From a virus (Duplodnaviria > Heunggongvirae > Uroviricota > Caudoviricetes): a stretch of 42,647 nucleotides of DNA. This document shows, piece after piece, positions 6,464 to 21,820 of this stretch (position 1 is the first letter of the stretch; the number at the start of each line of letters is the position of its first letter). Where the stretch lies: the IMG/VR virus record IMGVR_UViG_3300028797_000097, one strand, 5' to 3'. Below the pieces are notes generated by a model. The model was given only the letters and a program-made list of their open reading frames with translations. It was not told where the DNA came from and did not search any database. The position numbers and the translations under genes were made by a program.

Positions 6464-6555
6464 GTTTTTCCATAACCTCCTGATGATGAATGAGATGACC
6501 GAGATTAATTTCTCGGTCATTTCATATTTACAAATCTTCGGAATTTAACTATATT
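6464..6555 (+). repeat. Intergenic cassette copy 2
   Basis: Identical 26-nt motif, stem gagatgaccgaga/tctcggtcatttc, promoter. Confidence 0.85.
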
Positions 6556-6586
6556 ATAGATGTAACGAATAACAAAAGAGGTTAAC

Positions 6587-6817: not shown

Positions 6818-6828
6818 TAGAGGCTATT

Positions 6829-7035
6829 ATGTGTGCATATTGTGAAGGTCCAATGACTTTAGCTCTTATTGAACTCGGTGAAATTACAAAAAATAAACAT
6901 GAATATTCCTACATTAAGATTGAAAAGGGTAGGTTAGTTTTCCGTTCTGTCAATAGCAAAACAGGTACGCCAACTGATATTGGTACGAGAGCTAAATTCT
7001 GCATTGAATGCGGAAGAAAATTAACCGAAGATTAA
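6829..7035 (+). CDS. Small zinc-finger protein
   Basis: GAGG RBS before MCAYC...; C-terminal CIECG. Confidence 0.65.
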   Translation: MCAYCEGPMTLALIELGEITKNKHEYSYIKIEKGRLVFRSVNSKTGTPTDIGTRAKFCIECGRKLTED

Positions 7036-7087
7036 TCATTTACAAAAATACAGAATTTAACTATATTATAGACATAACGATGAGGTT

Positions 7088-7405
7088 ATGAATATGAATA
7101 CAACACATTTTGTCATCATGAATCAAATGAACACCACCAACATGATTAATCAAATGAACATGATGCATATAATGCACAACCACAATACACCGGGAACGGT
7201 GTGCACTCTCACTGGTATGGATGTGGTGATTATGATTGTTGGATTCATTCTGCTCCTCTGGGGTGGCATAAAGGTCACGGAATGGCTGCTCGAAAAGACC
7301 TATAAAATGAAGGATCCGATGGGCTCTATCGTGTTTGTCGTCGGAATGTTTGGCTACGTAATCGTCGGTGTCACGGTAATTAGCCTGTTTATGTATCTGA
7401 TTTAA
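7088..7405 (+). CDS. Membrane protein with Met/Asn/His-rich N-terminus
   Basis: Two hydrophobic helices, low-complexity MN repeats, own promoter. Confidence 0.65.
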   Translation: MNMNTTHFVIMNQMNTTNMINQMNMMHIMHNHNTPGTVCTLTGMDVVIMIVGFILLLWGGIKVTEWLLEKTYKMKDPMGSIVFVVGMFGYVIVGVTVISLFMYLI

Positions 7406-7410
7406 CGAAA

Positions 7411-7502
7411 GTTTTTCCATAACCTCCTGATGATGATAGAGGCACCTGGGTGAAATATCCCAGGTGTTTCTTATTTACAAAATATCCAAATTTTTCTATA
7501 TT
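7411..7502 (+). repeat. Intergenic cassette copy 3
   Basis: Identical 26-nt motif, stem gaggcacctggg/cccaggtgtttc, promoter. Confidence 0.85.
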
Positions 7503-7525
7503 ATAGATGTAACACGGAGGTTATC

Positions 7526-7756
7526 ATGTTTAAGAAGTTCATAGAAAGAATCAAAGCAGCATTCACGTTTAAACCGACTGCCATCAAACTCGACCCAAAG
7601 AATTTTACTCCATTTCAATGGAATTTGATTCAGAAGCATGAACGTTTCATTGGGGAAAAGAATCGTAACTATTTCCGTGACCATGCGGAAGATTGGGCTA
7701 AATGCTGGGATGAAGAATATTACCGAGCAAAAACTGCCACAGCAAGAGGTAAGTGA
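7526..7756 (+). CDS. Hypothetical early protein
   Basis: GGAGG RBS. Confidence 0.7.
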   Translation: MFKKFIERIKAAFTFKPTAIKLDPKNFTPFQWNLIQKHERFIGEKNRNYFRDHAEDWAKCWDEEYYRAKTATARGK

Positions 7757-7772
7757 TTAATTTAAAAACAAG

Positions 7773-7809
7773 AATTCAGGGTTACAAAACTCTGGATTTT
7801 TTCTATATT
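7773..7809 (+). promoter_or_regulatory. Hairpin-embedded early promoter/terminator
   Basis: aattcagg-GTTACAaaac-tctggatt-tttt, TATATT at N17. Confidence 0.7.
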
Positions 7810-7842
7810 ATAGATGTAACCAACAAATAAAAGGAAATTAAA

Positions 7843-8007
7843 ATGACACTCGTTTTCGCAATCATCGCAATCGTATGCATCTGTTTTGGGATTTGCCAAC
7901 TCTGTGGCGGCTATGCGGTGGGTTCTGGTTTCGCTGCTATTCTATTTGGTGTGGTATTGGCATTGCAGGAATGCGTTGGCGTCATCGATGTGATACCTAT
8001 GGTTTAA
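7843..8007 (+). CDS. 54-aa two-helix membrane peptide
   Basis: AAGGA RBS; almost entirely hydrophobic. Confidence 0.6.
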   Translation: MTLVFAIIAIVCICFGICQLCGGYAVGSGFAAILFGVVLALQECVGVIDVIPMV

Positions 8008-8023
8008 ATCAAAGGAGTCAAAC

Positions 8024-8215
8024 ATGAATTTTGAAGAATTCCGGAAAATGGTTGTATCTCGTGTCTATGACATGCGATATCCCCACGTGAGTGATGAAAA
8101 AGTGGACCAGATCATTGAAGCACATAGCGATATGATCAGCGATGAATTCGCCGATGATCCTACCGAAGATGGTGCCGACTGGGTTGCTCGTGAAATAGTA
8201 GCGTACTTCATGTAG
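8024..8215 (+). CDS. Small acidic hypothetical protein
   Basis: AAGGAG RBS. Confidence 0.65.
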   Translation: MNFEEFRKMVVSRVYDMRYPHVSDEKVDQIIEAHSDMISDEFADDPTEDGADWVAREIVAYFM

Positions 8216-8278
8216 TAACGTGGTCGGAACCACATTCGCGTTATAAGACCATGTTCTAATTACCCTATATATTTGACC

Positions 8279-8286
8279 TATAAATA
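8279..8286 (+). promoter_or_regulatory. T4-type late promoter
   Basis: TATAAATA upstream of the patatin gene. Confidence 0.7.
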
Positions 8287-8312
8287 TTAAAAACGGTATT
8301 TAAAGGTCATTT

Positions 8313-9182
8313 ATGGGTAAAAAACAATTATGTATAAGCGTTGAAGGTGGTGGTGCTTTAGGAATCGGTCCTTTAGCATTTATGTGTAGGATGGAGCAGG
8401 ATTTAGGGAAGAAAATATCAGATTTAACTTCCGCATTCACTGGTACGTCTACTGGAGCTATTATCGCTGCATGTTTGGCAGAGGGAATGAGTGCACATGA
8501 GGTGTTTGACCTATACAGGAACAATTTAAAGAAGATTTTTACCAAGTATTCCTGGTATAAGCGTCTCCAACCAAAATGCCCTACATACGACAATACGAAC
8601 CTTAAGAAGCTCCTTCAAGCTAATCTTAAGGGTAAGTGCAGCGATTGGAAAAAGCCTATCTACATCACCTCTACGTTCATGAATGGTGATTCTGTGGAGA
8701 AGGTTTGGGACTTAGGAGATAAAGAAACCGACAAATGGTTTGCGGTCCTTTCCAGTACAGCAGCGCCGACATACTTCGATGTATTGGAACGCAATGGTGA
8801 ATCATACTGCGATGGTGGTATGTGGGCAAATTGTCCGGCAGACATAGTAATTGCAGGTCAGTTTAAGCAGGGGAACAAGAATCTTAAGCTCCTCAACTTT
8901 AATACTGGTATGGACACACCAAATACGGAAAAGGGTAACAAGACATTACTTGGTTGGGCAGAATATATCTTCTCTGACTGGACAGCACGTTCTTCCAAAT
9001 CCCCAATCTACGAAGCAAAAGCTATTCTTGGTAACGATGCTGTGTTCGATGCCTCTCCGAAGCATAATAAGAAGATTAAGATGGATAAGGTAGATGATGA
9101 TACCATTAACCAGATTATCGATATTTGGCAAAAGTATTACGAATCCGTCAAACCAGACATAAAGGCATTCATGAATCGATAA
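8313..9182 (+). CDS. Patatin-like phospholipase
   Basis: EGGGALG oxyanion motif, GTSTG nucleophile elbow, SSTAAPTYF, DGG. Confidence 0.92.
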   Translation: MGKKQLCISVEGGGALGIGPLAFMCRMEQDLGKKISDLTSAFTGTSTGAIIAACLAEGMSAHEVFDLYRNNLKKIFTKYSWYKRLQPKCPTYDNTNLKKLLQANLKGKCSDWKKPIYITSTFMNGDSVEKVWDLGDKETDKWFAVLSSTAAPTYFDVLERNGESYCDGGMWANCPADIVIAGQFKQGNKNLKLLNFNTGMDTPNTEKGNKTLLGWAEYIFSDWTARSSKSPIYEAKAILGNDAVFDASPKHNKKIKMDKVDDDTINQIIDIWQKYYESVKPDIKAFMNR

Positions 9183-9192
9183 GGAGGCATCG

Positions 9193-9948
9193 ATGTTTAC
9201 GAACGACTATTGCCAATATGTCTATGATTACTTCAATAAGGATTTCTTCCAGAAAGAACTTGGAGTCAAGCTTGGAAAGTGTACGATCTTCACCAACAAG
9301 AAAGGTGATGCGAAGAAGATCTTTCCATCAAGCTTAAACGGGGATAAGGAGGATGATCCATTCGGCCTTTCCATAACTCTGTTAGGACATAACTACATCT
9401 GGATCAACCCGTTACTCCTCAACAGCAAGAAACTCCTAGTCAACACCATTCTCCATGAGATGATTCACCTGTATGTCAACGCTGTGGGTAACAACGGATC
9501 CAGACGTTACCGTCAAGGACATGGAAAGCTTTGGACCCAGACAGCGAAGTATGCCCAGTCGTTGTACGGTGAAGACCTCGGTAATATAGAACAATTCGCG
9601 ACCAAAGATGAGATGAAGAAGTATAACCATTATTACGGAATCAGAACAACTAAGTCTCTGGTCAATGCGTATTTGGTTAAGCTCACATCAGGTGATTTGG
9701 TTCCGTTGAAGGATTTAACTCCAGAACAGATTGTGGAACTCCAGGGGATGAATATCATTGGTATTTACCAGGTGAAACCAGGAATCCAGCAGGAACCGAG
9801 CAAGAGAGTAACAAAGTTCATCGATTGGGACACGCTTATCGATTGTATCGAAAACGGAATCGATTATGAAACAGAATCGGTCTGTGGTCATTTAAGGATT
9901 AAAATAGGTGAGGACACCGATACAGTTTGGCTTAGAAGACGCGGATAG
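9193..9948 (+). CDS. SprT-like zinc metalloprotease
   Basis: TILHEMIH followed by GHG..W; N-terminal Y..FN..FF. Confidence 0.8.
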   Translation: MFTNDYCQYVYDYFNKDFFQKELGVKLGKCTIFTNKKGDAKKIFPSSLNGDKEDDPFGLSITLLGHNYIWINPLLLNSKKLLVNTILHEMIHLYVNAVGNNGSRRYRQGHGKLWTQTAKYAQSLYGEDLGNIEQFATKDEMKKYNHYYGIRTTKSLVNAYLVKLTSGDLVPLKDLTPEQIVELQGMNIIGIYQVKPGIQQEPSKRVTKFIDWDTLIDCIENGIDYETESVCGHLRIKIGEDTDTVWLRRRG

Positions 9949-9974
9949 CTATAAATAAGTATAAGGAGATTAAA

Positions 9975-10442
9975 ATGAAACCAGAGGTTAAGAAAGCTTT
10001 ATATCTATTGGAAAACATTGGTTATACGGTAAAGCCAATGAATGAATCAGAACAGCAGGATTTAATTGATACCATCAAGTCCAAGTATGACGAATGGAAT
10101 GAATTGCGTAATACCCCGGAAGGTGATGACTTATGGGATGAAATGGCTGATGCTTATGGTAATGACCTTATTGATTTAGCTGTCGATGAATATGATAATC
10201 TTAAGAACGGAAAGCCTGTAGACATGACTGGTTACTTGGCCCACGCTGATGCTTTATACCCGGAATTCTTCGAGCTTATGCAGAAGGTCGGCGCTAAGGC
10301 ATTTAAGATTAACACTAAGGAAGCATTCGGCGGAAAAGCTTATTACCTCTATCAAGCTATTGCAGAGGGTAACATCCAGTTGCATCCGGAAGCTTATAAC
10401 TCCAGCGCTCCAGAATATGCTTTCTTCACCATAAAGGACTAA
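9975..10442 (+). CDS. Late hypothetical protein, possibly head-associated
   Basis: TATAAATA at 9950-9957, AAGGAG RBS, LLE/N and MNE/S putative cleavage sites. Confidence 0.65.
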   Translation: MKPEVKKALYLLENIGYTVKPMNESEQQDLIDTIKSKYDEWNELRNTPEGDDLWDEMADAYGNDLIDLAVDEYDNLKNGKPVDMTGYLAHADALYPEFFELMQKVGAKAFKINTKEAFGGKAYYLYQAIAEGNIQLHPEAYNSSAPEYAFFTIKD

Positions 10443-10477
10443 CTCCTCATTAGTTGCCAGAAACAAAGAATATACAG

Positions 10478-10516
10478 AAATCTAGGGTTGACAAAGCCCT
10501 AGGTTTTTATTATATT
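10478..10516 (+). promoter_or_regulatory. Hairpin-embedded early promoter/terminator
   Basis: aaatctaggg-TTGACAaag-ccctaggttt-tt, TATATT at N17. Confidence 0.78.
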
Positions 10517-10538
10517 ATGCGCATAAACAAGAGGATTT

Positions 10539-11309
10539 ATGACTCATTCTGATTTCATCGCAAACAAGATTAGCATGTCGGCACGATTGAAGGCCGATGT
10601 GGAACAACTCCAAAAGACAATCGATTACAAGGTCACGAGCGCAAACGCTATTGATGCGTATCTGGAAGCCGACGAACAGCGCGAAAAACATAAGAACACG
10701 GTCATGTGGCGTGTTAATATGCAGAAAGCTATCGCATTGGCTAAAACTGCGGTCGAATACGGTAAGAAGGTTTATGGCGACATGTTCTGTTGCCCAGTAT
10801 TCATCAACAATCTGATTCAATTTGAACCGAAATTGAACAGGATGATTCAAAAATATCCAGAAGAGTATTTGAGTCGCGAAGACCAGTTCCACTCTGCTGC
10901 AATCGGTCCTGGAAATGACCATGTGGTTGAAGTCGAAGATGAACATCAGGTCGAATCTATCGAAGCTCCGAACCGGAAAGAAAAGGCATCGAAACATGAC
11001 TGGACTCCCGAAGAAATTGGTCATTTGTTGCATGGTGACCATGACTATCTCCGCGAAAAGGTCGGTCTGACGTATGACCAGCTCGGTGGAAAAACTCGCG
11101 AACTCGGTTATGTTTTCCGTTACAACAGCCCGGTTAATAAGCCGAAGGTGTTTAACCGACTCGTGATTGGTTGTCACCCCGACTGGTTGGAGATGATTAA
11201 GAACGGAGACGTTGACGAGCTGATTGATGTCCAGAAAATCCGTCCGTCCGCTATTGCCAATGTCGCGAAGAAAAACGGATTCGATATTCCTGCCCGCTGT
11301 CTAGTATAG
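10539..11309 (+). CDS. Hypothetical early protein
   Basis: 256-aa ORF with GAGGA RBS. Confidence 0.75.
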   Translation: MTHSDFIANKISMSARLKADVEQLQKTIDYKVTSANAIDAYLEADEQREKHKNTVMWRVNMQKAIALAKTAVEYGKKVYGDMFCCPVFINNLIQFEPKLNRMIQKYPEEYLSREDQFHSAAIGPGNDHVVEVEDEHQVESIEAPNRKEKASKHDWTPEEIGHLLHGDHDYLREKVGLTYDQLGGKTRELGYVFRYNSPVNKPKVFNRLVIGCHPDWLEMIKNGDVDELIDVQKIRPSAIANVAKKNGFDIPARCLV

Positions 11310-11330
11310 CGTCTGATTAGAAGTAAAATT

Positions 11331-11369
11331 AAAGTCCGGGGTTACAAAACTCCGGATTTTTTCTATATT
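11331..11369 (+). promoter_or_regulatory. Hairpin-embedded early promoter/terminator
   Basis: aagtccggg-GTTACAaaac-tccggattt-ttt, TATATT at N17. Confidence 0.75.
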
Positions 11370-11393
11370 ATGAATATAACAGAGAGGTTAATT

Positions 11394-11519
11394 ATGGCAT
11401 ATCATCATTGCGGCGGAACGAATCCTATTGGTTTTGAACTGAATTATGAAACCATTGCTACTGCACTTATTATTATTGGTTTGATTGCATTTCCGTTCCT
11501 TATCTACTTTACAAAATAA
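11394..11519 (+). CDS. 41-aa membrane peptide
   Basis: GAGG RBS; C-terminal hydrophobic helix. Confidence 0.6.
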   Translation: MAYHHCGGTNPIGFELNYETIATALIIIGLIAFPFLIYFTK

Positions 11520-11550
11520 ATTGATACCTCCCCGTTCATATAAATAATAT

Positions 11551-11988
11551 ATGAATTGGAAGGATTACATCACAGAAGCTGAGGAGATTCTTGAACAGAA
11601 CCAACTTGACGAGAAACTGGTACGGAAATACCATGTCGAGAATGGTTTAAAGAAGGTAAAGGTAGTCTCCGATAAGCCTGGTTACAGAGTGGAATACGAC
11701 GATAATCACCAACCACATGAGGTGAAGATTACTAAGGCGGAAGAGATGCATCGTCGTATGGGCGCAAAGGTCGGTAAGTTAAAGCACAATAAGGCGCGAG
11801 AACAGGCATTGCGTAAAAAGTCTTTCCTTAAGCGTGCACGCGCTGGTCTGGATTACAATAAGGATGTTCCAGAGCTTAACACCAGGCGCGAACAAGGAGA
11901 AACTCTTAAATCTGACCAGAAAGGCTTGTTAAAACAGAAACTCCAGAATCTTAAAGACAAGCTGATGAAAGACATTGTTAAGGTATAA
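11551..11988 (+). CDS. Prohead core protein-like (T4 gp68 family)
   Basis: Late promoter at 11539; N-terminal YITE/A; basic region ending RKKSFLKRARAGL, resembling the gp68 C-terminus. Confidence 0.55.
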   Translation: MNWKDYITEAEEILEQNQLDEKLVRKYHVENGLKKVKVVSDKPGYRVEYDDNHQPHEVKITKAEEMHRRMGAKVGKLKHNKAREQALRKKSFLKRARAGLDYNKDVPELNTRREQGETLKSDQKGLLKQKLQNLKDKLMKDIVKV

Positions 11989-12019
11989 AAAAGAACCGGT
12001 TGTTATGACCGGTTTTCTT
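11989..12019. terminator. Bidirectional terminator between convergent units
   Basis: aaaagaaccggt-tgttatg-accggttttctt. Confidence 0.75.
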
Positions 12020-12422
12020 ATATCTCCTGTAACAGATCTTCCGTTCTGACCTGATCCAGCTCTATCTTAACCTCTGCGATATGGTTTAAGATCCACCATT
12101 CCGGATAAATAATACCATTTATGTCGATTATGTACCTGATATAATATACCTGACCTTTCTCATGTCCGCGATGATCCTCATGTAAGATTCTAGTCGGAAA
12201 ACGATAGTGTAGGAGTGGAACCCAGCTTTCGCATTTCCTGTACAGGGATGAAGCAGGAACAGGATAATCGCGCTGGCGAATTCTAGCATCACCCTCGCCC
12301 ACGATGTACCATATTCCGTCATGCTGGTGCAATCGGGGTTTGGACAGGTTAAAGGTACAATCCCATTCCCATACAGGATCATGGTATGATCCATAACTCC
12401 TTATCTCCTGTAACTTAATCAT
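12018..12422 (-). CDS. Array A paralog 11
   Basis: MIKL... to IDING...HIAEVKIELDQVRTEDLLQEI. Confidence 0.8.
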   Translation of the reverse strand: MIKLQEIRSYGSYHDPVWEWDCTFNLSKPRLHQHDGIWYIVGEGDARIRQRDYPVPASSLYRKCESWVPLLHYRFPTRILHEDHRGHEKGQVYYIRYIIDINGIIYPEWWILNHIAEVKIELDQVRTEDLLQEI

Positions 12423-12792
12423 CGATCTCCTGTATTACCTTTTCCGTGTGTATGTCCTCGATCAGCGCCTTAACCTCACTGAAATGATCCAGGAGGTATG
12501 TGTAATCATATACCTTACCATCAATCAGCAAGTCAATATCATGGGTACGCTTGGTGTAATCGATTTCCGCGTATTCGCCAATCCAGTCATGCGCGAAATG
12601 CCCGATGTACGCGAATGAGGTGTTCTTCTTCCGGTCGTACACCGATATATAAGTATCATCCTGTAAGTCTAGCTGGTTGAGGTTGGAAATAGGTGATACG
12701 ACCTTTTCTATTACTGGATCTATCGTATTTTCCAGATGCGTTTCTGTTCCGTGTGAATAATAGCTTGTAACTTTAAACTGTACCCTACTCAT
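12415..12792 (-). CDS. Array A paralog 10
   Basis: LLIDGKVY...HFSEVKALIEDIHTEKVIQEIDD. Confidence 0.8.
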   Translation of the reverse strand: MSRVQFKVTSYYSHGTETHLENTIDPVIEKVVSPISNLNQLDLQDDTYISVYDRKKNTSFAYIGHFAHDWIGEYAEIDYTKRTHDIDLLIDGKVYDYTYLLDHFSEVKALIEDIHTEKVIQEIDD

Positions 12793-13234
12793 CCATCCCC
12801 TTCAGATATAATTCCGTATTGTAATCGCTGATTTGGGACTGTAACCACGCGAAGTTCTCCTTAACCTCGTCATGCCAGTATTCCGTATCGTCTACGACCA
12901 GACAGAAGAAAGGTCCTGGATTCGTTTCTACTCCTGGTGGAGGCACATTCATACAGTCACTGGAATTAATGGTACAACCGTTAAACCAATCGCTATACCG
13001 TACTGTACCATCCTCCTCAATCTCTGATAGGTTGAATGTAACAGCGAGAACCTCACCAGTATGGATGTCACACCATTCCTGTCGATGTAACACCAGTGGT
13101 TTTGGGAGATCTATGTCCTCGCTGACCCATTCTGGATCCCCAAGCGTACCTCGAAGAGTAACATCCTTACCCTTTACCGTTCCGTGAATGTACATCCTGT
13201 TATGACCCTTGAAATATTTTCTCAATTTAATCAT
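12785..13234 (-). CDS. Array A paralog 9
   Basis: MIKLR... to LVVDDTEY...NTELYLKGMDE. Confidence 0.8.
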   Translation of the reverse strand: MIKLRKYFKGHNRMYIHGTVKGKDVTLRGTLGDPEWVSEDIDLPKPLVLHRQEWCDIHTGEVLAVTFNLSEIEEDGTVRYSDWFNGCTINSSDCMNVPPPGVETNPGPFFCLVVDDTEYWHDEVKENFAWLQSQISDYNTELYLKGMDE

Positions 13235-13592
13235 CTGTAATTTCCTCGATTAACTGTCTGGCAACAGCATCGCTTATAATCGCTCTCATTTCCGTTTCAT
13301 GGGAGTAAATGTCACTGTACCTGTACTCCTTACCATCTATCTCCAGATAGGTTTCATAGTTCAGGAACGTACCGATTTCGAACTGACAATGAGGAGTCTT
13401 AGGAAAACCACCATCCTCGCGTGGATCATAGAAATTGATTTCCAGTCTGTACTCACCTACTCCAGGATGGTAGTGTCGGGTTAATGGAGTAGGTTTGGTC
13501 TTGAGGAGAATAATCGGATACGATAAATCCGGAATATTCGTACTGTTTTGAGCTTTCTCGTTAAATGCTTTCGAAACTACTTTGATCATCAT
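13227..13592 (-). CDS. Array A paralog 8
   Basis: LEIDGKEYRYSDI..H..E...QLIEEITDD. Confidence 0.8.
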   Translation of the reverse strand: MMIKVVSKAFNEKAQNSTNIPDLSYPIILLKTKPTPLTRHYHPGVGEYRLEINFYDPREDGGFPKTPHCQFEIGTFLNYETYLEIDGKEYRYSDIYSHETEMRAIISDAVARQLIEEITDD

Positions 13593-13911
13593 CTATCTCC
13601 TGTAATAGCTTTTCCGTATATATACGATCGAATAACACCTTAAGTTCAGCGTAATGCTCCTTCACCTGTGCTTCATCGTACTCCTTATCATCTATCACCA
13701 GAATGGTACGGATTGTTCTGTACCCGTCCTTATCCAACTTCCATGTATCACCTATCCTGTCCCATGTATTCCACTCACTGGGAATCCCATCCCAACGATA
13801 GCTAATAGCTGGTACGGAACTCCTATCATCGAGGTGTACATCAAGGATGGTTTTGTCTTCTACCTTCTCCTCTGGTGTTCCAAGGTCGGTTATTGTACGT
13901 AGCTTAATCAT
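13561..13911 (-). CDS. Array A paralog 7
   Basis: LVIDDKEY...HYAELKVLFDRIYTEKLLQEIDD plus a short extension. Confidence 0.8.
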   Translation of the reverse strand: MIKLRTITDLGTPEEKVEDKTILDVHLDDRSSVPAISYRWDGIPSEWNTWDRIGDTWKLDKDGYRTIRTILVIDDKEYDEAQVKEHYAELKVLFDRIYTEKLLQEIDDDQSSFESI

Positions 13912-14215
13912 CTATCTCCTCTAAAAGCTTTTCCATACGCTCCTGGTCCAGTAACACCTTCACCTCAGCGTAATGCTTGCGAATCTTCTCTGCCCTGTAT
14001 TCCGTACCATTTATGACCAATGACGCGATAAAATCGACAAAACCTTCGCTATTCATGTATGTACCTAAAACGGAATAGTGTGATCCTGGGTACTCAGAAC
14101 TGCGGTCATAATGTACAGCGAGACCACACTTATCTTCTGATAGTACGACATTCCATATTTCTGCTTCTCGTACCTTAACTCTGGGGTAACAGTTCATGTA
14201 CCGTATCTTTACCAT
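13904..14215 (-). CDS. Array A paralog 6
   Basis: LVINGTEY...HYAEVKVLLDQERMEKLLEEIDD. Confidence 0.8.
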   Translation of the reverse strand: MVKIRYMNCYPRVKVREAEIWNVVLSEDKCGLAVHYDRSSEYPGSHYSVLGTYMNSEGFVDFIASLVINGTEYRAEKIRKHYAEVKVLLDQERMEKLLEEIDD

Positions 14216-14547
14216 TCTATCTCCTGCGTTATGGTTTCGATGTTTATCTCTGCTTCATAGTCTGACATTGCTGTCATAAGCTTTGCTGGTTCTTCCAGAA
14301 GTGAATAGGAGCGTACCCATTGCGAGGTAATTAGCTCCAGGAAGATACTGTCGGATTCGATCCAGTTCCGATTGATTCGCATACAGATTGGGGGTTGTCC
14401 CATGTCCTCCTGGATCCAATACTCCAGTTGAAACACTCCATCAAGGAGATAATACCTGTACCCATTGACCAGCTCATCAACTACTGGTTCTGGCGCTACG
14501 GAACGATCGTCACGCGGATTCTGTACTGTGTAATGAACCTTAATCAT
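14209..14547 (-). CDS. Array A paralog 5
   Basis: IFLELITSQW...LMTAMSDYE...TQEIEW; most similar to paralog 4. Confidence 0.8.
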   Translation of the reverse strand: MIKVHYTVQNPRDDRSVAPEPVVDELVNGYRYYLLDGVFQLEYWIQEDMGQPPICMRINRNWIESDSIFLELITSQWVRSYSLLEEPAKLMTAMSDYEAEINIETITQEIEW

Positions 14548-14842
14548 CTATCTCCTCTAAAAGCTTTTCCGTTTCATAGTCTGACATCGCGGCCATAAGT
14601 ACAGTGGGGGATTCAGCGAAGGAGTACTTCCTGGTCCAGCGTGGGGTTTCCAGTTCTAGGTAGATCCTGTCATAATGGAGATTCCACCCCTTACCGACAT
14701 GCATCGGTTCTGGGGGTTCATCTGGACCCATCCATTCCCTATAGAAGAATTCGAATTCACCATTATAGATCTGGTACTGGTATTCTCCAAATACCGGATC
14801 CACGATTACCGGATCCACGTTCTCATACCTGATCCGAATCAT
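14540..14842 (-). CDS. Array A paralog 4
   Basis: IYLELETPRW...LMAAMSDYETEKLLEEIDD. Confidence 0.8.
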   Translation of the reverse strand: MIRIRYENVDPVIVDPVFGEYQYQIYNGEFEFFYREWMGPDEPPEPMHVGKGWNLHYDRIYLELETPRWTRKYSFAESPTVLMAAMSDYETEKLLEEIDD

Positions 14843-15203
14843 CTATATCCTCCAACAGGTGTTCCGTCTCGTTTATGTCCAGTAACGACCGTACCTCTGC
14901 GATATGGGTTACAATCTCTGAGTAACGCCATTCCTTACCGTCTATCTCCAACCATGAGTCGTGATTGGTGAATCGACCCAGCCTGACCTTATGCATCTGA
15001 TGTACCTTCTCCGTATCGGTAAGGGAGTACCAATGAGGAGTATCGTAATACTGTATCTCCAAGTACTTGGTGTCGATCGCGTCTATTTGCCGTTCCATCT
15101 TATGCGGATCCACGTCCATGAGACGTAGCTGTACCAGGTGATACACCTCACTGGGATGAGGATCCTCGTTCAGGTCCGGAATATGGAGTAACACCTTAAC
15201 CAT
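14823..15203 (-). CDS. Array A paralog 3
   Basis: LEIDGKEWRYSEI..HIAEV...ETEHLLEDIDD. Confidence 0.8.
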   Translation of the reverse strand: MVKVLLHIPDLNEDPHPSEVYHLVQLRLMDVDPHKMERQIDAIDTKYLEIQYYDTPHWYSLTDTEKVHQMHKVRLGRFTNHDSWLEIDGKEWRYSEIVTHIAEVRSLLDINETEHLLEDIDDSDQV

Positions 15204-15672
15204 CTATCTCCTCCAGTAATGTATCAGTACGGATCTGGTCGAATAACACCTTCATGTCCATCATATGTTCCTTCAAGTACTCGAACGGGTATTCTTTCCA
15301 GTTGATGTACAGTATGGACTTACAGGGGTACAGGATGGTGTTGATCCCATGCGCGAATCTGGTTTTTCCAACACGGAGATTCTGTATCTCCTCCCTGTAC
15401 ATACTTGGAGGCGGTTCCAAGTACCGACCAATGTCTATCTTCACCCTATCTCCTACCTTACGAAGCGGATCATGCCCCTTCCATGACTGGACTCGACCCC
15501 GAATAACAATCGATTGGTTCGACATCTGTACCCGATAGTCCTTAAGATTATAGGTTTCCAGTTCTATCGTAACAGATTTAGGATCCAGGGTATGAGAGGA
15601 GAAATCCAGCTCCGGTTTTATTCCATCCCATTTACACTGATAGGAGTACATTTCTACTGTAACGTTATACAT
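15196..15672 (-). CDS. Array A paralog 2 (start reassigned to MYNVTV)
   Basis: GGAGGA RBS and overlap junction at 15672; LYINWKEY...HMMDMKVLFDQIRTDTLLEEIDG. Confidence 0.8.
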   Translation of the reverse strand: MYNVTVEMYSYQCKWDGIKPELDFSSHTLDPKSVTIELETYNLKDYRVQMSNQSIVIRGRVQSWKGHDPLRKVGDRVKIDIGRYLEPPPSMYREEIQNLRVGKTRFAHGINTILYPCKSILYINWKEYPFEYLKEHMMDMKVLFDQIRTDTLLEEIDG

Positions 15673-16123
15673 CCATGTCCTCCAGTAACATATCAGTACG
15701 GACTTGGTCCAGGAGAATGCGTAAGTCATTCAAATGATCTCGTACATACTGGTTATTATATTCCGTACCATCTATAATCAATGTACTGTGGCGCGTGATG
15801 TTTATATACTTAACCGTTGGACTTATCCGGAATTGTTTTGCATATCTAGCGCGTTCCACATCTGTTATCGCCCTGTCCTCATCCAGTGTGAATAGCCAGG
15901 ATTCTCCCTTTCTCCTTAATACCCAACTATCATCCACAACCTTTCCGTCCTGATCATGTAGTTCTGTAACAATAGCGTTAACCTTCATAATACTAGGATC
16001 CATAGCGAAATATCCCAGAGAAACGGAACAAGGATCCAACAGGAACTCGTGATACCACGATCCTGGAATGATTCCTTCCCTACTGTACTTATACCTGTAA
16101 TTCCGTACTAAAACACTATGCAT
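15665..16123 (-). CDS. Array A paralog 1
   Basis: LIIDGTEY...HLNDLRILLDQVRTDMLLEDMDV. Confidence 0.8.
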   Translation of the reverse strand: MHSVLVRNYRYKYSREGIIPGSWYHEFLLDPCSVSLGYFAMDPSIMKVNAIVTELHDQDGKVVDDSWVLRRKGESWLFTLDEDRAITDVERARYAKQFRISPTVKYINITRHSTLIIDGTEYNNQYVRDHLNDLRILLDQVRTDMLLEDMDV

Positions 16124-16149
16124 ACATCTCCAGTAATTTCATATCCCTA

Positions 16150-16178
16150 AATATAACAAATCTTTTACCATCTGTCAA
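16150..16178 (-). promoter_or_regulatory. Early promoter driving array A
   Basis: TTGACA-gatggtaaaagatttgt(17)-TATATT on the minus strand. Confidence 0.8.
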
Positions 16179-16253
16179 TACCCAAGTTATCTGAATAATA
16201 AAATATACAGAATTAGTATTTACATTTATTCCAAATTTTTCTATATTATGAAC

Positions 16254-16358
16254 ATGAACGAACGAATTGACAACATCAAACATTTCATTGGTCTCGGCAT
16301 CATTAACATTGTTTGCCGCATCTGTAAAATCCATTATCTGCACGTTATCAAGAGTTAA
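16254..16358 (+). CDS. 34-aa peptide, probably leaderless
   Basis: TTTACA(16219)-N17-TATATT(16242), then ATG near +1; MNERIDNIKHFIGLGIINIVCRICKIHYLHVIKS. Confidence 0.4.
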   Translation: MNERIDNIKHFIGLGIINIVCRICKIHYLHVIKS

Positions 16359-16458
16359 CTGCAAAAAAGAAAATCTAGAATTTAGGGTTTACAAATCAAT
16401 CAAAATTAACTATATTTAAATCATCGAAAACAACCAATCATCAAAAGGAAAAATCATC

Positions 16459-16836
16459 ATGGAACAGATTATCAACATGATTCTCGGTCAGTCCAACATC
16501 AATCTCCAGGCATTCGGTTTGAATGTTCAGAACCAGACAGCACAGCCGACCACTGTGGAAACCATCCAGGCAAAAATCAATCTCATCAAACAGCTCGATT
16601 CCATTCCGGCAGCACATCAGTTTGTTGAAGATTTCCAGATTGAAACTGTGAACCAGTTGGACAGTCTGATGAATATGGAATCTGTTATCGGTCTCAAGCC
16701 GACTGACGCTCAACTCTGGGCCATCAACAACAAGATCGATGCTATCATCAATGAACTCGAGACTGGTCTGAAGAACAAGATGCTCGCTCAGCTCAATGGT
16801 CTCGGACTCGGTGCTCTGAGTGGTCTGGTCCACTAG
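16459..16836 (+). CDS. Gln/Asn-rich helical hypothetical protein
   Basis: TTTACA-N17-TATATT promoter at about 16388-16416; AAAGGA RBS. Confidence 0.7.
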   Translation: MEQIINMILGQSNINLQAFGLNVQNQTAQPTTVETIQAKINLIKQLDSIPAAHQFVEDFQIETVNQLDSLMNMESVIGLKPTDAQLWAINNKIDAIINELETGLKNKMLAQLNGLGLGALSGLVH

Positions 16837-17275
16837 GGCTGACCTGGGGGGTGTCAGATTGTCTGACGCCCTTATATGACCTGCCTGACGTCAAGAGATC
16901 TGACGCCATATGGGCATAACGTCAAGGTTTACGACGTAGCCTACGACGCCCCGGGGGCCCCGGGGGGGGCGCCCCCCGTACTGACACCCCGGCGCAAAAC
17001 GGGAACGGGCTTGAAAAAAATGTGTCGAGGCCATATAGGGCTTTAAACCCCCTGGGGGAGGGGGGCCCGGGGCCTTATAGGTTTTGTTTTTCGTGTGTGT
17101 CTCTCTCTCCCAAAAAATAAAAAATTTTAAAAATTTTTGGTTATTTTCTGGTTATCAGGTTATTTCTGGTTCTCTGGTTATTCTGGATTTCAGGATAACC
17201 TTTTATTTTACCCCCGCCCGGGCTTGTTTTTGAAAAGGCTGTCTGCCAAAAAATTTTTTGAAAAATTTTTTTATA
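16837..17275. other. Non-coding GC-rich palindrome/repeat element (candidate replication origin or genome terminus)
   Basis: (T)GACG/CTGAC repeats, G/C homopolymer palindromes, TCTGGTTA-like repeats, A/T tracts, no ORF. Confidence 0.55.
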
Positions 17276-17281
17276 TCCGGG

Positions 17282-17310
17282 TTGAAAAAAGGGCTATTTT
17301 TTGATATATT
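17282..17310 (+). promoter_or_regulatory. Early promoter driving array B
   Basis: TTGAAA-N17-TATATT. Confidence 0.7.
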
Positions 17311-17319
17311 TGGTATATT

Positions 17320-17691
17320 ATGGATAATATGGATATGGAACCTTTATTGAAGTCGTATATTAGGTATGCGATGGGATTTGTGCCTAAGGAGCGGATGGCA
17401 TATGCTACTAATAATGGTAAATATGACCGTATTAAGATATTGGTTAATTCTAAGGGTAATATAATTGAAGAAAATACATATGCTATAACCTTTGAGTTAT
17501 ATAATGGTGAACAGCGTATTATTATAGGTAGTTTGTGGTTATCGGGAAGGAATCTTTATATAATAGAGACGGTATGTAATATCGTATTATATAGAAGACA
17601 TATACAGGAAATGATGGAATTTAATGAATTTTGTGAAAAGAATAATAATATTCCTAAGGGTATATTGAAGATTCCTACGAGGTTAGTATGA
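17320..17691 (+). CDS. Array B paralog 1
   Basis: LKSYIRYA... to IPKGILKIPTRLV. Confidence 0.8.
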   Translation: MDNMDMEPLLKSYIRYAMGFVPKERMAYATNNGKYDRIKILVNSKGNIIEENTYAITFELYNGEQRIIIGSLWLSGRNLYIIETVCNIVLYRRHIQEMMEFNEFCEKNNNIPKGILKIPTRLV

Positions 17692-18053
17692 CAGATTTTG
17701 ATAGTTTAAAATCATATATTGCGTATATTGTGAAAAATACAGGTTTTAAGGTTGAGCAGTGGCTATTACTGTCATTGGTAAATTTAAATAAGGAAAGTAT
17801 TAAGATAACGACTATATTGAATGATGGTAGTGCGTTATTCGATATATTGGATTATTTAGGGAATAATAAGATTATTGGTCGTATATGGTTTAATTGTAAC
17901 CATATAGTGCTTGTTAAAAATGAGGTTGAGCGTTCGCTGTTATATATTGGTTGGCCTGAAGATGTCGATTTATATAGTGTATTTGAGAAGAAAGTGATGT
18001 TACCTGTGGTTCCTTCTGGAATTTTGAAGATTCCTACTGATTTTAAGGTATGA
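17688..18053 (+). CDS. Array B paralog 2
   Basis: LKSYIAYI... to LPVVPSGILKIP. Confidence 0.8.
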   Translation: MTDFDSLKSYIAYIVKNTGFKVEQWLLLSLVNLNKESIKITTILNDGSALFDILDYLGNNKIIGRIWFNCNHIVLVKNEVERSLLYIGWPEDVDLYSVFEKKVMLPVVPSGILKIPTDFKV

Positions 18054-18054
18054 T

Positions 18055-18456
18055 ATGATAGATATTAGCGGAATAACTATGAAAGAATTGACAGAATATG
18101 CCGATTACTGTATGGGTAAGATACCTATAGAGGAGCGTTCTCGATTTCCTGGCGAGATGCGGGGAATAAGTAACGAGGTACGGTGTGACCGATATCATGG
18201 AGTTGAATCTGCTATAATAGATGCAAGCCCTGAGGATAAGAGTTTTATTATAGACATATATGATTCTAGTCGTAGGCAGGTTATGGCGGCTAGGATATGG
18301 TTGAACAACGGGCGTATTTATTTGATTGATTGGCTTGAGACTAGTTTATTATATGATAAGACGCCTGATGGGATTGAAACTTTTGAGGAGTTTAAGGCGA
18401 GGATAACGTTACCTAAGGTTCCTGCTGGGATATTGAAGATACCGGAGAGAATATGA
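18055..18456 (+). CDS. Array B paralog 3
   Basis: LTEYADYC... to LPKVPAGILKIPERI. Confidence 0.8.
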   Translation: MIDISGITMKELTEYADYCMGKIPIEERSRFPGEMRGISNEVRCDRYHGVESAIIDASPEDKSFIIDIYDSSRRQVMAARIWLNNGRIYLIDWLETSLLYDKTPDGIETFEEFKARITLPKVPAGILKIPERI

Positions 18457-18824
18457 GATATAGTGATTGGGAAATATTAATGTATGTAAGGTATTGTCTG
18501 GATAAGGTTTTATATTTTCAGGAAGGTGATCATATAAAAATGAGACATGATCATATAAAACTGAGACATGATTTTTGTAGTGATAGTATTATTATATATC
18601 CAGATAATACTGTTATGGCAGATATATTTTCTATGGGTGGAAGTCTTAAAACGACTGTCGCATTAAGTTTGGGTGAAGTTCATATTTATGCAGTGGATAT
18701 GATAGGTTATACGACATTATATGATGGAAGGCCTGCTACTGTAATGAATATTTCAGAATATATTGACAGTATAACGTTGCCTAAGGTTCCGAAAGGAATA
18801 TTGAAGATACCGGAGAAGTTATAA
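18453..18824 (+). CDS. Array B paralog 4
   Basis: LMYVRYC... to LPKVPKGILKIPEKL. Confidence 0.8.
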   Translation: MRYSDWEILMYVRYCLDKVLYFQEGDHIKMRHDHIKLRHDFCSDSIIIYPDNTVMADIFSMGGSLKTTVALSLGEVHIYAVDMIGYTTLYDGRPATVMNISEYIDSITLPKVPKGILKIPEKL

Positions 18825-19204
18825 TGTATATCGAGAATTATAAAGAAGAATTGATGGAATACATTAAGAGTTCTTTGGATAAGTTGCCATATAAGAGCGT
18901 ATTGTCGTCATTTGACCGGATTGAAATAACTGGGGAAGCGAATAATAATGGGGAATTTAAAGTAGAGTCTGGTATATTGTTTGATATGTGTAATGCAGAA
19001 AATGTAGTTATGTCGGGCTGTGTTTGGTATGATTATGGAACAATATACATTATAACAAAAAATGAAGATTATGAACATTATTATGCTTCAAATTGTTTAT
19101 ATTATGGACATCCTGATACATCTGTTGGTTTTGAAGAGTTTTTGAACAGTCAATTACCTAAGGTTCCAGTTGGTATTTTGAAACTTCCAGAGAGGGTTGC
19201 ATAA
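18824..19204 (+). CDS. Array B paralog 5
   Basis: LMEYIKSS... to LPKVPVGILKLPERVA. Confidence 0.8.
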   Translation: MYIENYKEELMEYIKSSLDKLPYKSVLSSFDRIEITGEANNNGEFKVESGILFDMCNAENVVMSGCVWYDYGTIYIITKNEDYEHYYASNCLYYGHPDTSVGFEEFLNSQLPKVPVGILKLPERVA

Positions 19205-19662
19205 TGACAAATTCTGAAATTGTTAAAGGATATGTATCGTATTGTATTTGTTATGTTCCTCGTGTTCATACAGCACGAGGTGAGATGCCGCTTGCGATAT
19301 TTAAGTTGGCTAATGTAAATATAGAACAGAATTCTAATGGAATTAACTACATTAATTTTGATTTGGTTGACGAATATGGGGTAATGTTTGCCGCGAATCA
19401 AAATTCATTTTATGAAAGAGCATTAAATCCTTATGGATTTTATAATGCTGGTTTAAACCATGTTGTTGTAAAAGGAAATATATCTATGAAGACTGGATAT
19501 ATTCAGTTAATAGATACATTTAATGGTCGGTGGTTTTACAGCGGGATTCCTGATAGTATTCGGACTTTTGACCAATATGTGGAAAATTTGGAAGAACGTG
19601 GACTTAAAGAGAAACCTAAGGGATTGTTGAAGATTCCTGCACATATGATGACAGCGGTATAG
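19204..19662 (+). CDS. Array B paralog 6
   Basis: VKGYVSYC... to KPKGLLKIPAH. Confidence 0.8.
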   Translation: MTNSEIVKGYVSYCICYVPRVHTARGEMPLAIFKLANVNIEQNSNGINYINFDLVDEYGVMFAANQNSFYERALNPYGFYNAGLNHVVVKGNISMKTGYIQLIDTFNGRWFYSGIPDSIRTFDQYVENLEERGLKEKPKGLLKIPAHMMTAV

Positions 19663-19663
19663 A

Positions 19664-20023
19664 ATGGCAGAAATTATAAGTAAAGAAACTGATGATGTGG
19701 AAACATTATATAAATATGTCCAATTCTGTCTTGAGAAAGCCAGAGTCGGGAAGTTATATAATTTGACTTTAGAAAAGCTGACAAAAACAGGAAATTTATA
19801 TTTTTATTATATGACGCAGAATTCTGGAACTCTTAGGATAATGTGTTATATTAATTTACATACATGTTATTATAATGCGTTTGAACCACGATGTCGTCGG
19901 TATATTCATCATAGTATAATAAAGGGAATACCTAATTATATTGATTTTGCAAGTAATAACGAACAAGGATTTGTAAGTGTTCCGAAGGGAATATTGAAGA
20001 TTCCGAAAAATTTAGGAGTATAA
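19664..20023 (+). CDS. Array B paralog 7
   Basis: LYKYVQFC... to VPKGILKIPKNL. Confidence 0.8.
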   Translation: MAEIISKETDDVETLYKYVQFCLEKARVGKLYNLTLEKLTKTGNLYFYYMTQNSGTLRIMCYINLHTCYYNAFEPRCRRYIHHSIIKGIPNYIDFASNNEQGFVSVPKGILKIPKNLGV

Positions 20024-20024
20024 T

Positions 20025-20405
20025 ATGCAACAATATACAGATTTTGAATTAACCAGGGTAAATAGTTATTTCAGGTTATGTATTGATTCGATTAAGGATA
20101 AGTTAGATCTTGAAACATATAACCTTGGTGTAATTTTACCTCATGGATCGGTTATTACATGTGTAGTTAAGTGTTATAAGAAGCCTCGTAATAAAATGGA
20201 TTTATATTCTGTTCTTTATAGGGATTATGCATTGCCTAAACAATATTATTGCATGATTGATGTTAAGCGAAATAATATAACGGTTAAGAACTTAGATGAT
20301 GGTGAAACATTATTTAGAGGAAAAACCGGAGTTAATACCACTTTTTCGGATTTTGTGTATGGTAAAGTTCGAAAAGGATTATTGAAAATTCCAGCAAAGT
20401 TATAA
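20025..20405 (+). CDS. Array B paralog 8
   Basis: VNSYFRLC... to KVRKGLLKIPAKL. Confidence 0.8.
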   Translation: MQQYTDFELTRVNSYFRLCIDSIKDKLDLETYNLGVILPHGSVITCVVKCYKKPRNKMDLYSVLYRDYALPKQYYCMIDVKRNNITVKNLDDGETLFRGKTGVNTTFSDFVYGKVRKGLLKIPAKL

Positions 20406-20455: not shown

Positions 20456-21820
20456 ATGACGAAATTATCAGAAAGTGAGAAGTTTAATGACCTTGATATA
20501 AATCGATTGGCTAGACAGGTTAGACAGAATGACGGTCGTGCTAATCGAGGGATTGTATATCAGGACGATAAGCGATATAATGATTATCAGGGTGAGAAAT
20601 GGCTGGATGTAAGAAGTAAGGATAAGAAAACTCTTATTGCAGCTATCCTTGACGGTATGTCTGATGTTCAATATCATTATAAGGGAAAGTTATATAAAGA
20701 TATTAAGAACGAGGATGATTTAATGGCCTCATACGAAGCCAATAAGGCTGTTGTGGACTCGATTTTAAATTTCCTAAGTAAATATATGCATGGACATACA
20801 ACGGTCTACAGAGGCTTCGGATTTAGCTCTGATGAGTATCGTAGGATGAAGCACAAGAATAATATTACATTTGAACATCAGTTCTTGAAAATATTGAATA
20901 ATAGGGGTAAGAAATTTAATTCTTTTAGTGTTTCTCCATTTATAAGTAAGGATTTTGCAGAAGGTGGTGGTAATAAAGCCATTGTCATTGCCGCAGATGT
21001 AGAACCGAATGATATTGCTTTCGCATTTACTGCTTATTTGTTGGGAAGACATGGAAGTCCTGAAGAATTGGAATTGAATATCAATAACCTTAAGGATTTA
21101 AAGAATTTAAGAATTATTAAAGATATTGATGCTGAATGTGCACGATTTGTTAAATATACAGATACAGAAGAAGAATTACAGAAAAGATTGGATTCTGGCG
21201 AATCTATGGAATCTGTATTTAAGTATGTAAAGAAACTTAAGGTTTTTAGCGGAACAATTTATAAATGTGGAACATTATGTGGTGAGGTTATTGTCAAGGA
21301 TAATAAGATTGTTGTTCCTCGTAGTAGAGAAATACATTATATAAAAGACGGAATATTTGTTATTACTCCTATGGATGATCCTACTGAACATAATATATTG
21401 TATAACTTTAATAATGAAACTAAGAGCAAGTCATATGAAGGTATATTATTCTATGGTGCTGATAGCGATGATAAATTGATAATCGCATATAATGGTGATA
21501 ACAAGTATACATTATTGGATATGGAAACATGTGAATCGAAATTCAAGGGATATGCAAAGAAAATTTCACGCTTACCAGGAGTTACATGGTACGGGCAGAA
21601 AAATATTTGGCATACTGTTGAATTTTATTTAGTAACATTAATGGATAACACAGTTACAATTTTCAACAATACTGGTCATTGTGTATTCAGACGTGCCCCA
21701 TATACGTTTACTAAGATTGATTGCGACTCAGATAAATTGATAATGACTTGTCTGGAACAACCTGGTAAAAAACCTCGACGATTCTCAATCAAAAATAATT
21801 TAGCAATCGAAGAAATGTAA
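20456..21820 (+). CDS. Putative ADP-ribosyltransferase (R-S-E type) with C-terminal beta-repeat region; late gene
   Basis: TVYRG...FNSFSVS...EELEL motif order; TATAAATA at 20444. Confidence 0.55.
   Translation: MTKLSESEKFNDLDINRLARQVRQNDGRANRGIVYQDDKRYNDYQGEKWLDVRSKDKKTLIAAILDGMSDVQYHYKGKLYKDIKNEDDLMASYEANKAVVDSILNFLSKYMHGHTTVYRGFGFSSDEYRRMKHKNNITFEHQFLKILNNRGKKFNSFSVSPFISKDFAEGGGNKAIVIAADVEPNDIAFAFTAYLLGRHGSPEELELNINNLKDLKNLRIIKDIDAECARFVKYTDTEEELQKRLDSGESMESVFKYVKKLKVFSGTIYKCGTLCGEVIVKDNKIVVPRSREIHYIKDGIFVITPMDDPTEHNILYNFNNETKSKSYEGILFYGADSDDKLIIAYNGDNKYTLLDMETCESKFKGYAKKISRLPGVTWYGQKNIWHTVEFYLVTLMDNTVTIFNNTGHCVFRRAPYTFTKIDCDSDKLIMTCLEQPGKKPRRFSIKNNLAIEEM

Follow-up and report, generated by a model that had tools for sequence, protein, structure and literature searches.

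A question raised by the locus considered here is what function is served by a gene-free stretch in which short repeats, palindromes, G runs and A/T tracts are crowded together at a change in base composition. The locus lies in a viral DNA of 42,647 nucleotides (the whole of which is called the window below), where a stretch of about 480 bases without any gene separates early gene blocks of opposite reading direction. A sequence-only reading had proposed that this stretch (the element) is a bidirectional replication origin or a packaging or terminal site, and that the neighbouring 125-aa gene, P0001, could encode the protein that binds to it.

The source of the DNA is an uncultured T4-like phage of about 420 kb from ruminant guts, the runs that contain it being bovine and goat gut metagenomes. 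Among the genes of the window are those for a family-B DNA polymerase (polB), a two-subunit type II topoisomerase, an NAD-dependent ligase and a GroES-like protein, with the polB, topoisomerase II and ligase genes not far from the element. A colinear relative contig of 191 kb (G001:C83, hereafter C83) encodes a T4-type Gp23 capsid protein. By alignment with polB, a complete relative was found in IMG/VR (G315), which has 424,163 bp, assembles as a circle with an end overlap of 127 nt, and has a polB that is 67% identical to that of the window. Two GTDB records with this DNA are labelled as Methanobrevibacter MAGs; based on the T4-type capsid, the sigma-70-type promoters and the intrinsic terminators, the host is likelier bacterial and the label likelier a case of mis-binning. 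No match was found by blastn in the phage GenBank collection, or in IMG/VR queried with P0001 and with a 24-mer of the element; the back-translated GILKIP pattern and the tandem 9-mer pattern matched only unrelated contigs, and in relatives with a polB of 51-63% identity, no counterpart of the element lies within 10 kb of that gene.

We consider first the features of the stretch itself. It is non-coding, having only short ORFs and, among relatives, indels of 1 nt. All of the repeats, palindromes, G runs and A/T tracts that had been listed from the letters are present, no more than 1-2 nt off the positions given, and they are far denser than expected by chance. On the left, a cluster of short TGAC/GTCA/CGACG repeats, direct and inverted and assigned to no strand, extends over 16839-16990, with CTGAC occurring five times, GTCAG once, TGACG three times, CGTCA twice and CGACG twice. 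Nine TGAC/GTCA cores are found in 164 nt where 1.1 are expected, and none of 5000 shuffles reached nine. The cluster is framed by an inverted pair, 16848-16857 and 16981-16990 (the first arm having been placed at 16847 before), that is complementary at 10 of 10 positions. It also holds a direct repeat TACGACG-N5-TACGACG with a period of 12 nt (16930-16948) and, adjacent to it, a tract of 29 nt made of G and C only (16949-16977), in which a perfect palindrome of 14 nt begins at 16964. Among relatives the boundaries of the runs in this tract shift, but the first three runs keep a length of 13 nt. The G runs lie at 17038-17040, 17054-17058, 17060-17065 and 17069-17072. On the right, GGTTAT occurs at 17139, 17150, 17158 and 17176, GGTTCT at 17168 and the inverted ATAACC at 17195. 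These form an array (17139-17200) in which Tandem Repeats Finder gives a period of 18 with 3.1 copies over 17139-17194, and five GGTTAT/ATAACC units are found in 75 nt where 0.06 are expected. The two A/T-only tracts are at 17112-17138 and 17246-17272. Both the TGAC/GTCA and the GGTTAT clusters are the densest of their kind in the window, and the GC-rich non-coding island, with 64% G+C in a genome of 32% G+C, is unique both in the window and in the 191 kb of C83.

A part of this stretch can be read as signals that act in RNA. The promoter of P0001 (plus strand, 16388-16416) is of the early type, with TTTACA and TATATT separated by a 17-nt spacer, and a core of 33 nt (16384-16416) is found again, in different surroundings, on contigs from four RNA libraries; it also occurs at four other sites in G315. 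The gene, on the plus strand at 16459-16836, is followed 11 nt past its stop codon by the plus-strand hairpin H1 (16847-16873), with 12 bp and a 3-nt loop, that has a folding energy of -19.0 kcal/mol on the plus strand vs -13.3 kcal/mol on the minus strand and a z-score of -5.7. Further downstream, T1 (17013-17092, plus strand) consists of an A tract, a long G+C-rich hairpin that contains the four G runs, and a U tract (-35.2 vs -25.1 kcal/mol). T2 (17176-17209, plus strand) consists of a hairpin formed by the last direct and the inverted GGTTAT unit and then a U tract (-12.8 vs -9.1 kcal/mol, z-score -4.4). Thus, H1, T1 and T2 are all more stable on the plus strand, by 3.7-10 kcal/mol. T1 and T2 were marked as terminator-like by the pattern scan, and in both of them a G+C-rich hairpin followed by a U tract lies downstream of a gene on the same strand, as in an intrinsic terminator. 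It is noted that in RNA libraries the region is represented here and there by contigs of low depth, which may be DNA carry-over; they cover P0001 and continue to about 17043.

The right end of the element reads as a strong sigma-70-type early promoter with A/T tracts upstream, which would drive an array of eight paralogous genes. It was found by consensus scan on the plus strand at 17282-17310 and has TTGAAA, a 17-nt spacer and a TG-extended TATATT. It is kept together with the start codon in all relatives including G315, where it reads TTTACC-17-TATATT. As the promoter ends 9 nt before the conserved ATG at 17320, the mRNA of the array would have almost no leader. The eight paralogs themselves give an alignment that is too diverged for scanning.

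Comparison with close relatives shows how the various parts are kept. The element is present in eight further loci, always in the same order of P0001, element and first gene of the paralog array. In L039, the most diverged of these close relatives, the coding sequence of P0001 is 64% identical, vs 79-95% for the blocks of the element (79% over 16837-16995, 95% over 17015-17100, 85% for T2 and 86% over 17210-17319). Two patches vary freely, the one at 16996-17014, with indels and replacement among close relatives, and the GGTTAT array, where units are deleted, duplicated and re-phased, so that period and copy number differ between relatives: two units are deleted in C83, L032 has a unit of 20 nt, and in L029 and L034 the first part of the array is deleted. 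In H1, one-sided changes among relatives keep the pairing. T1 and T2 are kept with changes that leave the pairing possible, A-U pairs becoming G-U and G-U pairs becoming A-U or G-C. Of these, the latter occur in T1, where in addition a bulged A is deleted in three relatives; in T2 the changes are wobble-only, and the top of the stem, CUG/CAG, becomes CAG/CUG in L039.

Two other structures that had been suggested by the letters fare less well in this comparison. The framing inverted repeat and H1 compete for one arm, and in L039 the framing repeat is not kept, the changes there breaking the long-range pairing while improving the local hairpin H1. A canonical G-quadruplex is defined by four runs of at least 3 G on one strand with loops of 1-7 nt. 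The four G runs, however, leave a first loop of 13 nt, they pair with C runs within T1, and G315 does not have this segment. A further candidate, a hairpin at 16935-16945, was rejected; one compensatory change seemed to support it, but G315 keeps there two direct TACGACG units and not the pairing.

Based on sequence, folding and comparison, in the P0001 lineage the early gene P0001 reads into the element, and the predicted transcript end is composed of the stop-proximal hairpin, T1 and T2. The covariation among eight sequences is at the level of the shuffle control, with one compensatory pair in 58 pairs, and therefore the support for the hairpins and terminators is thermodynamic and positional rather than statistical. 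About one third of the flagged stretch is ordinary terminator and promoter signal that is specific to this lineage.

Could the whole G+C-rich part then be an RNA in its own right? It might be supposed that the 250 nt after P0001 (16837-17092) form a stable or 3'-UTR-derived regulatory RNA. This would be in line with the position of the 64% G+C island between a stop codon and a terminator, with the plus-strand preference of the hairpins, with a conservation exceeding that of the coding sequence, and with the RNA-library contigs mentioned above, if these do not come from carried-over DNA. However, at a permissive threshold no Rfam 15 family matches (the best E-value being 1.4, far below the gathering scores), ARAGORN finds no tRNA or tmRNA, and by eye there is no likeness to rnaC or rnaD of T4. 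The fold of the whole region has a z-score of only -2.8 on either strand, and the covariation is at the shuffle level as described. Moreover, G315 keeps the blocks while losing H1, H4, T1 and T2, and it has neither an upstream gene nor a clear promoter from which such an RNA could arise. A structured RNA thus appears to us to be an improbable explanation.

G315 in fact reveals what lies beneath the RNA signals. In that genome the element has a sole counterpart at 275.5-276.1 kb (locus L197), with the synteny kept, the higher-G+C cassette region being on one side and polB and the A/T-rich replication genes on the other, while the immediately neighbouring genes on both sides differ from those of the window. 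No P0001 homologue is present, and the pattern scan found no terminator-like site in the gap of 585 nt. Hairpins H1 and H4, T1, T2 and the hairpin 16935-16945 are missing, with A/T-rich sequence in the place of T1 and with the direct repeats around 16935-16945 remaining. Since G315 has neither P0001 nor a terminator-like site, we assign the hairpins and terminators to the lineage with P0001. A first reading of the element, as a structured 3' UTR plus terminators only, was revised, because G315 has the core without the gene or the terminators.

Nine blocks are kept in G315 in the same order and with 80-90% identity. From the left, these are a part of the TGAC/GTCA cluster; the two TACGACG units with their 12-nt period, of which the 5-nt spacer differs (Tandem Repeats Finder gives period 12 with 2.1 copies in L197); the G/C-only tract, in G315 of 28 nt, which is alike in character though not in sequence; the block 16982-16998, identical at 15 of 17 positions; an A7-TGTG block; the (GT)n(CT)n run, in the window (GT)4(CT)5 at 17093-17109, with the A/T-only tract that follows it, the block 17102-17138 being identical at 30 of 37 positions; the tandem array, of 22 nt with 3.2 copies; the GC box with T5GA4 (17211-17238), identical at 24 of 28 positions and invariant in all close relatives; and finally the A/T tracts, A6T6-G-A5T7 at 17246-17272 with 21 of 23 positions conserved over 17249-17271, together with the promoter. 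None of these blocks, except for the promoter, is assigned to a strand. All close relatives and G315 have both repeat families at the syntenic position. Apart from the run of 28 nt, no G/C-only run in the 424 kb of G315 reaches 18 nt, the combined TGAC/GTCA/CGAC/GTCG cluster at the element is the densest of that genome (16 cores per 200 nt), and the element is present there in a single copy. In G315 the module fills the gap between divergent early promoters (L197, 2062-2090 on the plus strand and 1549-1521 on the minus strand), and the ancestral module would thus fill a gap of about 0.5 kb between two such promoters.

The element is therefore a real, single-copy DNA module that is conserved across distant relatives. 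As the core is kept as sequence motifs and without an evident transcript, we infer that beneath the RNA signals there is an older single-copy module that would work as DNA rather than as RNA.

The same comparison bears on the protein that was supposed to bind the element. P0001 is a real, lineage-specific gene, with 271 homologues that are under purifying selection and that lie on contigs of 415-435 kb. Its product is a helical orphan protein, for which the structure model is all-helical with low confidence (pLDDT 66). Searches against Pfam, PHROG, fold and PDB collections gave no match, and thus no DNA-binding family, and the ESM Atlas gave no usable match. With its absence from G315, which bears the core, the gene would be dispensable for keeping the core and is apparently not a fixed partner of the element, contrary to what had been proposed.

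We now turn to the proposal of a packaging or terminal site. In this proposal, short repeats would bind the terminase and palindromes would mark the cut. Some pac sites are built of repeated hexamers, and the element's cluster of short repeats in two orientations over about 150 bp recalls them; also, four metagenome contigs end within the element, at 16858, 16881, 16964 and 17095, and the element bounds the higher-G+C early cassette region. By contrast, at least seven independent assemblies run through the element, and two of these circularise or carry the element internally, so that nothing points to a genome end here; in the circular G315 the element is internal, at 275.5-276.1 kb. The contig breaks lie at G/C homopolymer runs and beside strain-variable patches, which are usual causes of assembly breaks. 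In addition, T4-type phages package by the headful from permuted concatemers (PMC3016281), which also argues against a physical end at this place. We thus consider a pac site or genome end to be very improbable.

For the proposal of a replication origin, the base composition is the natural evidence. The claimed switch of composition is borne out, the plus-strand GC skew changing at the element from about -0.13/-0.20 to +0.38/+0.45 and the GC content from about 43% to about 32%. It should be noted that in the window, and likewise in C83 and G315, plain GC skew tracks the coding strand. When the cumulative skew is calculated over the whole of G315, the minimum is located at 340-345 kb, about 65-70 kb off the element, and the maximum near 130 kb. 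When plus-strand and minus-strand genes are compared bin by bin, the component that is independent of orientation flips near 110-130 kb and near 320-340 kb, and not at the element (275.8 kb), from which the second flip and the minimum are 45-70 kb away. A regression with two equal arms puts the best origin of G315 at 285-290 kb with third positions and at 345 kb with all positions. Since the global minimum and the orientation-corrected flip lie elsewhere (about 320-345 kb), the whole-genome skew test does not single out the element.

On the local scale the result is different. The sharpest switch from C-rich to G-rich in the whole of G315 occurs at the element, with D of 0.44 for flanks of 3 kb and 0.42 for flanks of 5 kb, the next best values being 0.30 and 0.27. 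The element remains the top switch in G315 when only third codon positions are used, and in C83 it is likewise the sharpest with 3-kb flanks. In the left flank of G315, the plus strand is C-rich in genes of either orientation (-0.31 and -0.20). The coding-strand skew there is negative in three genes that point toward the element and strongly positive in those that point away; in the right flank the few genes on the opposite strand deviate, so that there the bias is not independent of orientation. Of the 68 genes in the window, only 2 have negative coding-strand skew, and one of them is P0001, which points toward the element. The paralog array points away from it, and has third-position skew of +0.5 to +0.86 that fades with distance from the promoter, with C at 0.04 and G at 0.20 of four-fold sites, compared with 0.09-0.10 and 0.03-0.04 in core genes. 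The local switch would fit either forks leaving an origin one way or heavy divergent early transcription including antisense read-through, the two being inseparable on these data.

An alternative that has to be weighed here is that the element serves purely transcriptional control, its blocks being sites for regulators of the host or the phage together with bending or UP-type tracts that set the strength, timing and insulation of the divergent early promoters, with the skew switch a by-product of heavy transcription. Promoters and terminators are indeed the only functions that can be read directly from the sequence, and the A/T tracts and the GC box, which do not vary among close relatives, are found no more than about 110 nt upstream of the array promoter. 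The strand bias at synonymous sites of the array, fading from the promoter, is what would be expected from transcription-linked deamination of the non-template strand, and the genome-wide cumulative skew does not pick out the element. On the other hand, the repeat cluster and the G/C tract lie 300-450 nt from the array promoter, which is far for an operator or an UP element, and two families of repeats together with pure A/T and a unique G/C tract exceed the usual needs of a promoter pair. The core persists while the regulated genes on both sides are replaced, and long antisense read-through would be required to account for the reverse bias of those G315 genes that point toward the element. 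We consider purely transcriptional control to be the main rival explanation, somewhat less probable than the reading preferred below and more plausible than a structured RNA.

The reading that we prefer, and that we hold as a serious possibility still short of a probable one, is that the core is a T4-style, transcription-linked origin or control module. In favour of the origin proposal, the core is single-copy, is kept at 67% polB identity whichever genes flank it, has divergent early promoters on its two sides with the replication genes close by, and marks the strongest local switch; the cumulative skew over the whole genome, of which the minimum is elsewhere, does not add to it. In a more specific form, which we put forward with somewhat greater reserve, the core may be the main early replication origin of a clade of about 420-kb T4-like ruminant-gut phages and may have a build that was previously undescribed, with a TGAC/CGACG cluster and a G/C-only clamp on one side of an A/T tract, a GGTTAT-type array on the other side, and divergent early promoters framing them. 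The bias over about 5 kb, independent of orientation, would then be the footprint of one-way forks. Under this mechanism, proteins would bind the repeats of the core, transcription from a flanking early promoter would help to open the A/T tract, and forks would depart both ways from the core. Later replication by recombination would leave the strand bias strong only within about 5 kb of the element.

Several observations stand against an origin. The GGTTAT units are short and unevenly spaced by 7-11 nt, with a period of 18, 20 or 22 nt and a number that varies among close relatives. No gene for an initiator accompanies the element. The core of the MotA box, TGCTTnA, which in a middle-mode promoter lies near -30, is absent from both strands over 14258-19083, where only early-type promoters are present. 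In the lineage of the window, T1 is located between the P0001 promoter and the 27-nt A/T-only tract (17112-17138) and would halt the P0001 transcript just before this tract. Finally, strong divergent early transcription alone could create the local skew switch.

The element is real and conserved, and its older module is a reasonable candidate for a replication origin. To our knowledge, replication origins have been poorly characterised in T4-type and jumbo phages, and for uncultured huge phages we know of none. The element offers a candidate of about 0.5 kb that is precisely bounded, single-copy and deeply conserved, with named blocks that can be tested, and G315 provides a natural control, having the core without the inserted gene and terminators. 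Should it not be an origin, the element would still be the master control region lying between a pair of early gene arrays that evolve fast, and it would mark where the higher-G+C cassette region gives way to the A/T-rich replication module. In addition, the extreme strand bias of synonymous sites beside it is a measurable signature that could help to find similar sites in other phage genomes.

It remains to compare the element with known systems. The PeSL cassettes of T4-type phages (PMC4122927, PMC2839356) resemble it in that a terminator and an early promoter persist while neighbouring small genes are swapped, and in lying at the edge of a hyperplastic region. However, the PeSLs are small and multi-copy, whereas the element, of about 0.5 kb, is single-copy in 191 kb and in 424 kb and consists mostly of neither terminator nor promoter. 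Iteron-type theta origins, such as lambda ori and those of plasmids like R6K gamma, have three or more direct repeats of about 17-22 bp beside an A/T-rich tract. The element recalls them in that about 3 tandem copies of a repeat spanning roughly two helical turns (18-22 nt) are found beside an A/T-rich tract and a G+C-rich palindrome, the arrays beside the A/T tract having a period of 18 with 3.1 copies in the window and of 22 with 3.2 copies in G315. It differs from them in having no adjacent cognate initiator gene, in the repeat core of only 6 nt, and in the inconstant copy number and period, unit and number varying even among close relatives.

The closest comparison is with the origins of T4 itself, which have no motif in common (PMC3016281). 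Its oriF and oriG combine a middle promoter with an A+T-rich unwinding element and are primed by an R-loop (PMC3016281). Like these, the element is compact (about 0.1-0.5 kb), with a promoter no more than a few hundred nt away from a tract of pure A/T; unlike these, it has no MotA-type middle promoter, and in the P0001 lineage the upstream promoter is separated from this tract by a terminator. In G315, a possible internal promoter upstream of the tract was read from the sequence directly, though the consensus scan did not list it. The oriE of T4 has a cluster of evenly spaced 12-nt repeats that is also present in relatives, and depends on an early promoter, the role of its iterons being unproven (PMC3016281). 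There is no sequence likeness between oriE and the element, which lacks genes like repEA and repEB and has only two TACGACG units with a 12-nt period and an uneven GGTTAT array (18-22 nt), in contrast to the even 12 nt of the T4 repeats. What the two share is a T4-type genome, a non-coding cluster of direct repeats that is syntenic in relatives, a place at a divergence of transcription and a shift in composition, and early-type promoters that are adjacent. As oriE, oriF and oriG are all located at points of transcriptional divergence and base-composition shift (PMC3016281), the element, while falling outside each named origin type, would by analogy resemble the class of T4 origins in its position and its build.

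The synonymous sites of the eight GILKIP paralogs, the early array lying immediately to the right of the element (the candidate origin, a non-coding stretch of about 480 nt at 16837-17319), are nearly devoid of C (17320-20405 and 20456-21820). At the four-fold sites the fraction of C is 0.04 in the paralogs versus 0.09-0.10 in the core genes, while that of G is 0.20 versus 0.03-0.04, and at the two-fold sites C/(C+T) is 0.10 as compared with 0.24-0.30. The third-position GC skew of the paralogs is from +0.5 to +0.86 and declines away from their promoter. A synonymous bias of this type was not seen in any other gene group within the window.

It is noted that the promoter of P0001, the 125-aa orphan protein encoded immediately to the left of the element, has a core of 33 nt (16384-16416) that recurs in contigs from each of the four RNA libraries examined, where its flanks differ and its word depth reaches up to 20x, and that is also present at four other sites in G315, the complete 424-kb relative. 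The core is a reused early-promoter cassette. Directly upstream of another early-type promoter, a second intergenic stretch (320-370) carries GTCAG/CTGAC inverted repeats with 9-bp arms, the pentamer being the one that dominates the element. The NAD-dependent DNA ligase is encoded in two pieces, by ORFs separated by about 190 nt, with the adenylation part in the first (1527-2651) and the zinc-finger and BRCT parts in the second (2840-3670).

Among the nine JGI metagenome contigs carrying P0001, four (L030, L031, L033 and L035) terminate within the element, at positions 16858, 16881, 16964 and 17095, two of them being 11 and 28 kb long. These breaks occur at G/C homopolymer runs or immediately before strain-variable patches. 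In GTDB, the DNA of this phage is present in only two species genomes (L026, JAFQXD010000042.1; L027, JAFRFB010000097.1), both goat-gut MAGs under the Methanobrevibacter label. Because a gene for a T4-type capsid protein, together with promoters and terminators of bacterial type, is present on their contigs, which are 191 and 173 kb long, this binning is probably wrong.

A long stretch of elevated G+C content (275-360 kb in G315; 1-17000 in the window), with 38-44% G+C versus 30-36%, is built from small early-type gene cassettes and has the element as one of its boundaries. The first 9.2 kb of the window lack a counterpart in the 191-kb colinear relative contig C83. In G315 (L200-L221), a second switch of the third-position skew, independent of gene orientation, is located at about 347 kb, in the region of about 340-347 kb, and coincides with the global minimum of the cumulative skew. 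This position is another origin-like place, located within the higher-G+C cassette region.
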